Virus record (IMG/VR): IMGVR_UViG_3300022758_000234 | Location: 1 to 6,387 of that record | Length of the DNA: 6,387 nucleotides | Direction: 5' to 3' (one strand) | Origin: a virus | Shown here: piece by piece, positions 1 through 6,387 of the stretch | How positions within the stretch are numbered: position 1 is the stretch's first letter | Layout: every line of letters begins with the position of its first letter | Position numbers and translations under genes: made by a program | The notes under the pieces: generated by a model | What the model saw: only the letters and a program-made list of their open reading frames with translations | What the model was told of the DNA's origin: nothing | Databases searched by the model: none

Positions 1-127
1 TATTTCCGCTTCAATTCGAGACGTTTGTATAGCCGCTTAACACGTGGCACCAGGCGGTCGGAAAAATATCGAGGCAATAAAAGTTGTATAAGCTTCCCAC
101 GTTTATTTATGAACCGATAAAAAAAAA
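1..127. repeat. Terminal direct repeat (copy 1). It is identical to 6261-6387 and marks the circular junction / assembly over-run of a 6,260-nt circle.
   Basis: Positions 1-127 and 6261-6387 are identical base for base (tatttccgcttcaattcgag ... gaaccgataaaaaaaaa). The repeat lies inside the rep coding frame. Confidence 0.95.
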
Positions 128-980
128 TTTTGTCGTACAGAACTTTAAATTCTTCAAAATCCTGAACGTTCTCTATCTGCTGGCGCAGGTCGGGGTGAAG
201 CTTCATGAGCTTCTCAAAATACGCATTACCAACCCCTTTTGACACTACACGCGGAGGCTTCTGAACATAGCCAGCTTGAACATAGGGCGTTTGTTCATCA
301 AGATGTTTACAAACATACTTTGCCACATATTCAATCGTAGTGTCAGTACTTGCACGGTCGGACAAATCAATCTCTTTTATGTCAATCGCAGCGTCTTTAC
401 AATTGACGTCAGAAAAATGCGAAAGCCAATCGTTATATATTAAATCCTTGACCTGAGCAAAATCCTCATTTAAAAATATCAAACCGTGCCAGTGCGGCCT
501 GAACGTCAAAGGGCCATACTCGCCCTGAATAAAATATTTAATATCAAGCGTTTTATTAAAATGATACTGATATTGACGACGAACACGCTTTATATGCGCT
601 GAAATATCCGACTTCGAAAAAATGGGAACAAAAACGCCAGTATCAACATATTTTTCGGGGTTTAAATACCTATTAAATACATTTTCATGCGAAAGATTAT
701 ACTGCAAAGACTTCGAGGGATGCTCGTAAAAGTACTTTTTTAAAATATTGAAGAAGTCGCAATCATTGTTTACGAACTTCACATGTTTATACGAAAGAAA
801 TGTATTTGGATACTTATATGTAACAAAGAGCATATATCTATGCTGCTTAGATTCTTCCCTCAGGCGAACGAACCAAGAATTTGTTTGCTGGCGAGAACAT
901 TCGACGCAATCACCGCAAGGCCGATATATCAACCGACCTTGCGTATCACGCCTATTTGTGGGTACAGGATGCAAACACAT
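1..980 (-). CDS. Replication initiation protein (Microviridae VP4/Rep, HUH rolling-circle endonuclease). This is the N-terminal 327 codons. The gene starts at ATG 978-980 and continues past position 1 across the circular junction, with its C-terminal part at 5867..6260.
   Basis: Hand translation of the minus strand in the frame of ORF 5867..6337 is open from 1001 down to 1. The upstream stop is TAA (plus tta, 1002-1004) and the first ATG is at 978-980. The product begins MCLHPVPTNRRDTQGRLIYRPCGDCVECSRQQTNSWFVRL. It contains FVTYKY (810-827, RCR motif I-like), RPHWHGLIF (474-500, HUH motif), YVAKYVCK (306-329, YxxKY catalytic tyrosines) and SKGVGNAYF. The ORF track misses it because it crosses the window edge. 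Confidence 0.93.
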   Translation of the reverse strand, partial: MCLHPVPTNRRDTQGRLIYRPCGDCVECSRQQTNSWFVRLREESKQHRYMLFVTYKYPNTFLSYKHVKFVNNDCDFFNILKKYFYEHPSKSLQYNLSHENVFNRYLNPEKYVDTGVFVPIFSKSDISAHIKRVRRQYQYHFNKTLDIKYFIQGEYGPLTFRPHWHGLIFLNEDFAQVKDLIYNDWLSHFSDVNCKDAAIDIKEIDLSDRASTDTTIEYVAKYVCKHLDEQTPYVQAGYVQKPPRVVSKGVGNAYFEKLMKLHPDLRQQIENVQDFEEFKVLYDKIFFYRFINKRGKLIQLLLPRYFSDRLVPRVKRLYKRLELKRK

Positions 981-3289: not shown

Positions 3290-3332
3290 ATTTTCATATT
3301 TTAAGGATTGAACATTTTTATTTGTGTGTCAA

Positions 3333-3410
3333 TCCGCCGTACCATAGCGAGATACGGCGGAGTGATTGACGGTTGACCGTCAATCACCACCCGGCGACGA
3401 CGTCGCCGTA
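3333..3410. promoter_or_regulatory. GC-rich cluster of three adjacent perfect hairpins. It is a candidate complementary-strand origin (primase / RNA polymerase recognition structure) or another cis-acting structure.
   Basis: Hairpin 1: stem 3333-3341 (tccgccgta) pairs with 3353-3361 (tacggcgga), with an 11-nt loop. Hairpin 2: 3362-3373 (gtgattgacggt) pairs with 3376-3387 (accgtcaatcac), a 12-bp arm with a 2-nt centre. Hairpin 3: 3392-3399 (cggcgacg) pairs with 3401-3408 (cgtcgccg), centred on 3400. GC content is far above the rest of the genome. GGTTGAC-like words recur at 3371, 3411 and 3436. Confidence 0.5.
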
Positions 3411-5750: not shown

Positions 5751-5799
5751 ATTATCAAATAATGTTAAAATAAAGCGTGATTTAACATTATTTAATAAT
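5751..5799. promoter_or_regulatory. AT-rich stem-loop in the Rep-VP1 intergenic region: a 13-bp perfect stem extending to 19 bp with one mismatch, and an 11-nt loop ataaagcgtga.
   Basis: 5757-5769 (aaataatgttaaa) is the exact reverse complement of 5781-5793 (tttaacattattt). The flanking 5751-5755 pairs with 5795-5799. An outer 11-bp inverted repeat, 5691-5701 (tattggttaaa) / 5812-5822 (tttaaccaata), brackets it. Confidence 0.5.
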
Positions 5800-5866
5800 C
5801 CTACATTTGTTTTTAACCAATATTAGATTCTATAAAGGCGATACAATGACAAACCAAAAAAAAACA

Positions 5867-6387
5867 TTAATAGGCTAGAAGTGAGGAAACCGTACACTCG
5901 TCGAAAACAGCTCGGGTAACAGAATAGTAGGTGTTCGGCTTGGCTCGTCGTAAACGTACGCGAGCAGACGCTTCATAAAATTTCTTGTAAAGCGAATCCA
6001 CCTCACACGGCGACGCATCAACCAATTCTGAGGCCGACTTTCCAAGTAACTCAGAAAATTTTTCCTCAAAAAGTATTCGTAAGTAACAATCCTTAAATCG
6101 AACAAATTTTGCCGCAGTATCGCGGATATAAGAAGAACAATTAACCGATCGAAAACGGGCAAAGTCTTTAACTTCGTGTCCATATTTTAAAACTTTATTA
6201 TTGAAAGATGAAATGCGAGAGGATATAATATTCACAACATATTCGGCGCCGTCATACACATATTTCCGCTTCAATTCGAGACGTTTGTATAGCCGCTTAA
6301 CACGTGGCACCAGGCGGTCGGAAAAATATCGAGGCAATAAAAGTTGTATAAGCTTCCCACGTTTATTTATGAACCGATAAAAAAAAA
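5867..6387 (-). CDS. Replication initiation protein VP4/Rep, C-terminal part of the same gene as 1..980. Positions 6261-6387 duplicate 1-127. The stop is TAA at 5867-5869. The full protein is 457 aa over 1,374 nt of the 6,260-nt circle.
   Basis: ORF 5867..6337 in the track starts at a TTG only because the frame is open to the window end. The same frame continues uninterrupted into 127->1 of the first repeat copy. The C-terminal 170 aa are basic (RLVPRVKRLYKRLELKRKY, ARVRLRRAKP) and contain no Met. Confidence 0.9.
   Translation of the reverse strand, partial: FFYRFINKRGKLIQLLLPRYFSDRLVPRVKRLYKRLELKRKYVYDGAEYVVNIISSRISSFNNKVLKYGHEVKDFARFRSVNCSSYIRDTAAKFVRFKDCYLRILFEEKFSELLGKSASELVDASPCEVDSLYKKFYEASARVRLRRAKPNTYYSVTRAVFDECTVSSLLAY
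6261..6387. repeat. Terminal direct repeat (copy 2), identical to 1-127.
   Basis: Same as above. Confidence 0.95.

Follow-up and report, generated by a model that had tools for sequence, protein, structure and literature searches.

The region downstream of the T9 homopolymer in the Rep gene of this microvirus is probably the normal C-terminal third of a 457-aa HUH Rep, and the run itself a recoding site conserved in its clade. Comparison of related genomes suggests that short and long forms of Rep would most likely arise in this family by polymerase or ribosome slippage at the run. The stretch of DNA analyzed here (6,387 nt, hereafter the window) carries a rare variant, which we interpret as a frame-restored allele of a slippage-dependent junction, with both halves of Rep fused in a single reading frame.

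Genome organization and the Rep gene

The window ends in a 127-nt terminal redundancy (1-127 = 6261-6387) derived from assembler overlap, and it is a circular microvirus genome with a unit length of 6260 nt. The small circular genome and an F-type major capsid protein (599 aa; PF02305 Phage_F, E = 2.2e-48) place it in the Microviridae, and a 444-aa DNA pilot protein matches PHROG pilot families. All of the large ORFs are on the minus strand, together with several small ones. The closest GenBank microviruses are gut or faecal genomes, with capsid identities of no more than 50% and Rep identities of no more than 32%. Inverted repeats are present at 3362-3387 (12-nt perfect arms, 2-nt loop) and 3329-3365 (13-nt arms, 92% complementarity); this pair spans the 3' end of a 120-aa ORF and the gap before a 92-aa ORF, and is a candidate origin, terminator, or packaging hairpin. 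The Rep-capsid intergenic region has a further inverted repeat at 5751-5799 (19-nt arms, 95% complementary, 11-nt spacer).

Rep is a VP4-like HUH replication initiator of 457 aa in the window translation, and its gene crosses the circular junction. Its features are as follows.

1-980, minus strand: Rep coding sequence nt 1-980, codons 1-327, with the ATG at 980-978; contains the T9 run
5867-6260, minus strand: Rep coding sequence continued over the circular junction, nt 981-1374, codons 328-457 and the stop codon (5869-5867)
474-494, minus strand: HUH motif HWHGLIF, residues 163-169, inside the PF23343 match and aligning with distant Reps
306-329, minus strand: catalytic tyrosine motif YVAKYVCK, residues 218-225, aligning with YVAKY/YVSKY of distant Reps
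119-127 (duplicate 6379-6387), minus strand: T9 homopolymer (A9 on the plus strand), coding sequence nt 854-862, codons I285-F-F-Y288
107-109, minus strand: TAA stop if the run is read as 8 U (...IFFIGS*), giving 290 aa
103-105, minus strand: TAA stop if the run is read as 10 U (...IFFLSVHK*), giving 292 aa
66-77, minus strand: LPRY motif, residues 302-305, downstream of T9 and so missing from a 290-aa product

The score of Rep against PF23343 (REP_ORF2-G2P) is 37 bits, above the curated cutoff of 27.8, and it matches phrog_942 over residues 1-326 (E = 1.2e-27); the profile match and the HUH and YxxKY motifs identify it as a Microviridae VP4-type HUH initiator.

The run has the context AAA ATT TTT TTT TAT (K284-I-F-F-Y288). 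The original prediction was exact as to its position, its in-frame reading, and the products of about 290 aa expected from loss or gain of one T (290 and 292 aa), and it was also correct that the part beyond the run is basic and Met-free, with a pI of 9.9, a net charge of +17, and no Met in 169 residues. For the window alone, the absence of Met, the off-frame stops, and the T9 run itself are within chance. Met is rare throughout Rep (3 in 288), giving a probability of ∼0.17 that 169 residues have none, and 37% (+1) and 65% (−1) of all possible shifts in the Rep gene reach a stop within eight codons; we therefore set both aside as signals. The window has four T9/A9 runs where 1.2 are expected, a number matched by 15 of 200 shuffles. 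A role for T9 as an intrinsic terminator was rejected, as there is no terminator-like hairpin upstream of it.

We note that the 127-nt overlap stops exactly at the last base of the A9 run. Circular contigs usually break at a graph branch, and the reads of the window's sample may therefore be heterogeneous in run length.

The C-terminal third of Rep

Sequence comparison identifies the C-terminal 170 aa as genuine, ancestral Rep sequence and not an add-on, because the region is continuous in 456-aa relatives and can be aligned as far as residue 392 in a 434-aa Rep. The 456-aa Reps (P0002 and P0003) are uninterrupted and match at 57% identity with 100% coverage, and the alignment to the 434-aa Rep (32% identity) runs continuously through the junction. 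A comparison of Rep lengths and C termini among relatives had been proposed as a check, and at both of these distances the relatives have an uninterrupted long Rep; the uninterrupted lengths observed are 423, 431, 434, and 456 aa.

Two parts of the original prediction fail on this evidence. First, the region is not a 170-aa extension that begins after the run, since the phrog_942 match covers residues 1-326, tblastn alignments against 408 phage records mostly end near residue 310-312 among the best matches listed, and the LPRY motif is conserved: P303, R304, and Y305 hardly vary across 18 aligned sequences, among them Reps of only 20-30% identity, and do not vary at all in a further alignment. 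Second, about 290 aa is not the canonical length, as Reps of the wider lineage are 423-457 aa.

The suggestion that the region is a fused basic DNA-binding domain is right insofar as it is real Rep sequence, but nothing supports the J- or VP5-like packaging role proposed for it. Neither Pfam nor PHROG has a match to the C-terminal 170 aa, and HMMER, run exhaustively against 1.84 billion representatives, recovers the domain only in Rep C termini of this clade and its sister clade; we thus rejected a J-, VP5-, or ORF8-type packaging protein. In the AlphaFold2 model of Rep, pLDDT is 70-94 for the HUH domain and mostly <55 for the C terminus, and a Foldseek search of the model, with its low-confidence C terminus, against the PDB gave only weak, nonsignificant HUH-nuclease matches.

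The run and the Rep reading frame in related genomes

We retrieved 24 related contigs from Logan, IMG/VR, ENA, and NCBI, giving 25 with the window. The most common allele is AAG-T9-A(C/T)C, one base shorter than in the window, and it is present in 21 of the 25 (L001 to L008, L010 to L014, L023 to L025, and L040 to L044); ∼15 or more sequencing projects contributed them, and their assemblies are of the SPAdes, MEGAHIT, and Logan types. In these genomes Rep is split: the first ORF (ORF1, 290 aa) ends three codons past the run with the tail I/T-D/G/V-L/S-stop, which leaves the other 167 codons in the −1 frame. Insertion of one T restores exactly 457 aa in all 13 split cases that are full length. 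Three contigs from two projects have AAG-T10 and are fused, and the window has the fused allele AAAA-T9, one base longer than AAG-T9; T8 or T11 never occurs among the 24 AAG-type contigs. Apart from the break in Rep, the split genomes show no damage: their capsid, pilot, and small ORFs all have normal lengths.

The same division is seen among protein records. The best database match to Rep is a 290-aa protein (94% identity) that heads a 420-member cluster, in which most of the members listed are 290 aa and a few are 457 or 167 aa. A search with the C-terminal 172 aa gives ∼50 clusters with ∼363 distinct sequences that range from 95 to 167 aa and are mostly 122-167 aa, these being C-terminal ORFs annotated as genes of their own. 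Because of these ∼363 C-terminal-only ORFs and of a cluster whose listed members are mainly 290-aa proteins, the split form predominates in public data. The exact 457-aa Rep of the window is absent from a 15-billion-protein collection. A search for the AAAA-T9 pattern elsewhere found a single microvirus-sized match (L029), which is unrelated, and ten others on larger contigs. Searching IMG/VR for further relatives returned the same five contigs again, and no host or prophage copies were found in isolate genomes.

In a neighbor-joining tree rooted with the sister clade at 57% identity, the split genomes form a star-like radiation with the fused genomes nested inside. The sister clade is itself fused and has not kept the run, having T8 in L020 and TAT TTT TTC TAT in L037. 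The lineage of L023 and L024, represented by two independent assemblies at 80% nucleotide identity (dS > 2), retains the AAG-T9 split. The run has thus been kept over dS > 2 and has decayed in the sister clade, and conservation of TTT-TTT-TTT is only modestly above chance (P about 0.04-0.1). Intergenic homopolymers vary freely in length among the relatives, unlike the run in Rep, and the one just 3' of the Rep stop is 7-9 long. The window also has intergenic stretches rich in A/T homopolymers (1565-1656 and 5856-5864), including T9 at 1567-1575, A8T8 at 1635-1650, and, immediately beyond the Rep stop on its 3' side, A9 at 5856-5864.

The −1 frame in the split genomes

Beginning with the first codon past the run, the −1 frame evolves as coding sequence and is subject to purifying selection. 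For codons 290-352 in the split genomes only, variable sites number 12, 6, and 29 at codon positions 1, 2, and 3 (diversity 0.056, 0.019, and 0.163), the same pattern as in ORF1 (47, 16, and 153). dN/dS for codons 290-310, again in split genomes only, is 0.06, and it is also about 0.06 for the −1 frame of L023 and L024. The three codons after the run are invariant as Y-R-F and change only at third positions (TAT/TAC, CGA/CGG/CGT, and TTT/TTC), and every one of these synonymous changes alters an amino acid in the 0-frame tail.

The two frames meet closely at the run. In 15 of 16 tabulated contigs a −1-frame stop (TAA/TGA) precedes the run by one or two codons, and the 0-frame stop is three codons downstream in 16 of 16; the −1 frame is closed upstream and the 0 frame downstream, and therefore the overlap is only ∼20 nt, centered on the run. 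The −1-frame codon lying over the 0-frame stop (orthologous to window 108-110) is GTA, GTG, ATG, or ATA, and the stop alternates between TAA and TGA in step with it. Taken together, the features of the split genomes cannot be accounted for by assembly error or recent decay. Slippage-type junctions are recognized by at least nine A or T, and these are present in the window, in all 21 split contigs, and in the three T10 contigs. A downstream frame that is coding, homology that is contiguous across the junction, and the lack of a conserved start are seen in the relatives only, the window being fused.

Possible routes to short and long Rep

In the split genomes, full-length Rep would arise from a ten-U reading of the run. 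The likeliest route is transcriptional slippage, with the host RNA polymerase adding one U as it copies the nine Ts; less likely would be a −1 slip of the ribosome, without a stimulator, on U_UUU_UUU, which is in register in the split relatives (AAG UUU UUU UUU ACC). By either route the product would read ...KFFFYRF..., identical to that of the T10 allele. In many bacteria, slippage starts to be noticeable once a tract has nine A or T (PMC1088944). We favor transcriptional slippage because tracts of this length are slippage prone and because neither a stimulatory structure nor a Shine-Dalgarno (SD)-like element accompanies the run. The 120 nt downstream have a minimum free energy of −12.1 kcal/mol, weaker than 198 of 200 shuffles (z = +2.0), and a downstream frameshift-stimulating structure was rejected because the region folds worse than its shuffles; the alifold consensus computed from 11 sequences reaches only −7.9 kcal/mol and places no helix close to the run. 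No SD-like element is conserved upstream of the run, where AAGG varies with AAAG.

The expected outcome in the split genomes would be two forms in fixed proportion: an abundant N-terminal one of 290 aa, which keeps the HUH and tyrosine motifs and lacks LPRY, and a scarcer one of 457 aa. In the window, the AAAA-T9 allele appears to be derived, restoring the frame with the run retained, and standard decoding would yield the 457-aa Rep; slippage at T9 would add minor 290- and 292-aa forms with the HUH and tyrosine motifs and without LPRY. A role for such minor truncated products is conjecture. The proposal that slippage at T9 yields two Rep isoforms is thus supported to the extent that in 21 of 25 contigs the run is the junction of two overlapping frames that only slippage could join, but in the window itself the allele is in frame and the short forms would be minor.

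Alternative explanations

The explanation that fares best beside recoding concerns the window alone, and we regard it as doubtful. It holds that the T9 of the window is an inert relic, that only the 457-aa Rep is made, and that any slipped products are functionless noise. This is consistent with the frame being open through T9, with the unremarkable statistics within the window, and with the fused alleles without a long run in the sister clade. However, a 9-T tract is slippage prone in many bacteria regardless of intent (PMC1088944), the frame was restored by a change outside the run with T9 kept, and the relatives indicate that a short form is tolerated or used.

The most serious rival for the split genomes, although an improbable one in our estimation, is separate initiation of the C-terminal part, with Rep truly divided into a 290-aa nuclease and a protein of ∼147-167 aa that act together, the latter begun by termination-reinitiation or at TTG or ATG codons farther downstream, and nothing recoded. 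Gene callers do report ORFs of 167, 156, and 147 aa, and in 14 of the 21 split contigs the codon over the 0-frame stop is ATG or GTG, forming an ATGA or GTGA stop-start overlap at which termination-reinitiation could give a separate 167-aa polypeptide. This start is not conserved, however: seven contigs, spread over several branches, have the nonstart GTA at this codon, the fused alleles have ATA, and a TTG farther downstream is lost in L023. Moreover, the Y-R-F codons lie upstream of the candidate start and are nonetheless under purifying selection in the −1 frame, and FFYRF...LPRY is one continuous conserved block in the fused relatives.

A very unlikely alternative is that the variation operates at the DNA level only, with replication slippage interconverting T9 (short) and T10 (long) genomes in a form of phase variation, such that the population would be mixed and T9 phages would depend on T10 siblings for full-length Rep. 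Both alleles are indeed found in nature, the T10 contigs L017 and L019 group with the T9 contig L010 on the neighbor-joining tree (70% bootstrap), and the break of the window contig at the run hints at heterogeneity, if we infer correctly. Nonetheless, 21 samples have a T9 consensus against 3 with T10, and T9 genomes complemented in trans would not be expected to keep purifying selection on the C-terminal region over dS > 2. The A protein of phiX174, moreover, acts preferentially in cis. Phase variation and transcript slippage are compatible and not mutually exclusive.

Least probable of all, with a very slim chance in our judgment, is homopolymer error, in which all genomes are truly T10 and in frame but under-called as T9: long homopolymers are error prone, the three T10 contigs attest that run length varies, some ENA contigs of relatives have coverage of only 2.5-6x, the window overlap ends at the run (a hint of read heterogeneity), and the main microvirus taxonomy paper treated frameshift-split genes in metagenome-assembled genomes (MAGs) as artefacts and corrected them with Ns (PMC9239249), but against this, across many projects and no fewer than three types of assembler, 21 of the 24 AAG-type contigs have T9 and T8 or T11 is never seen, T10 assembles correctly where it is present, a systematic one-base under-call would break the frame of the window's own T9, there are hundreds of distinct split protein records, and >50% of reads would have to be erroneous in every sample. 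The related idea that a sequencing error had fused Rep to an unrelated frame is contradicted by the conservation of the fused protein, and such an error cannot explain the split relatives.

An ORF overlapping the 3' part of Rep

The 3' part of Rep contains a second open frame.

5875-6183, minus strand: embedded ORF of 102 codons with an ATG start, in the +1 frame of Rep codons 353-455; candidate overprinted gene

This ORF is probably an overprinted gene, as are B and K in phiX174 gene A. It is intact and exactly 102 codons long in 17 of 17 clade genomes, in L023 and L025, and in L020 and L037 of the sister clade. Of the three Rep codon positions in this stretch, the first is the most variable, and it coincides with the third codon position of the embedded ORF; dS in the Rep frame declines from 0.51 to approximately 0.13-0.2. 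The embedded ORF has no Pfam or PHROG match. Two rare variants in proteins of relatives that correspond approximately to window 5867-6183 indicate that indels occur in the overlap region: P0078 is an 89-aa protein joining the N terminus of the embedded ORF to the C terminus of Rep, and P0040, a C-terminal ORF of 161 aa, carries an internal deletion.

Implications

With somewhat more reserve than for the recoding site itself, we lean toward a broader reading of these genomes, in which the essential Rep gene would have stayed permanently out of frame at a U9 tract over saturating synonymous divergence, programmed slippage would set the ratio of a 290-aa, HUH-only protein to the 457-aa Rep, the window and T10 alleles would be "locked-fused" forms, and the same region would also encode the overprinted 102-aa gene. 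If this is true, recoding joins overprinting and internal initiation as a means of information compression in the smallest DNA phages, and microviruses would have another way of making two Rep isoforms, by a mechanism unlike that of phiX174 A/A*. At least some of the frameshift-split genes of microvirus MAGs would then be conserved biology and not assembly error, and regulated expression may be masked where Rep length, gene number, and taxonomy have been taken from "corrected" genomes. Three alleles occur naturally (split T9, fused T10, and fused AAAA-T9), and the two fused ones would serve as a ready-made genetic control for the recoding idea. We found no report of recoding in the Microviridae in the literature that could be searched, and a comprehensive review of frameshifting from 2016, in the portion available, says nothing about the family.

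Comparison with known systems

One comparison is with the VP4/Rep proteins of the gut microviruses MG945133 (423 aa) and MT135433 (431 aa), which share the HUH, YxxKY, and LPRY motifs, the long C terminus, and a genome context with a Phage_F capsid and a pilot protein. Their Reps are uninterrupted, and their C termini are not detectably similar to that of the window past residue ∼313-392.

Gene A of phiX174 is also a microvirus Rep gene with two protein sizes (predicted ones in our case) and with overprinted ORFs in its 3' part (B and K in phiX174). We found no sequence similarity between the Rep region and phiX174 B, K, or A*. The original analogy to A/A* in outcome is apt in that two isoforms are predicted, but the parts of the protein differ: A* is made from an internal in-frame start and is a C-terminal part with the active site, whereas the short Rep would be the N-terminal residues 1-290, ending at a frame break.

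In IS transposases and Escherichia coli dnaX, −1 programmed ribosomal frameshifting occurs at an X_XXY_YYZ heptamer, and the U_UUU_UUU of the split Rep would similarly allow perfect re-pairing of tRNA-Phe; a short ORF1 and a fused ORF1-2 product are a further likeness, the fused product being a predicted one for Rep. Unlike those systems, Rep lacks a downstream stem-loop or pseudoknot and a conserved SD-like stimulator.

Slippage systems offer further parallels to the run itself. In Thermus thermophilus dnaX, the in-frame product of an A9 run is tau, and slipped transcripts give the shorter gamma (PMC1088944). This resembles the AAAA-T9 allele of the window, a nine-base run in an open frame with nearby stops in both other frames; about half of the dnaX product is short and both of its forms have known roles, whereas the short form of Rep is predicted. 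In Shigella flexneri mxiE, transcriptional slippage at a T/U run joins mxiEa and mxiEb, and the longer fused protein is functional (PMC1088944). Although mxiE is a cellular regulator gene in which slippage was shown experimentally, and Rep is a viral rolling-circle initiator interpreted from comparative sequence, its arrangement is like that of the AAG-T9 relatives: overlapping ORFs meet at a T run, and one nontemplated U restores the frame.
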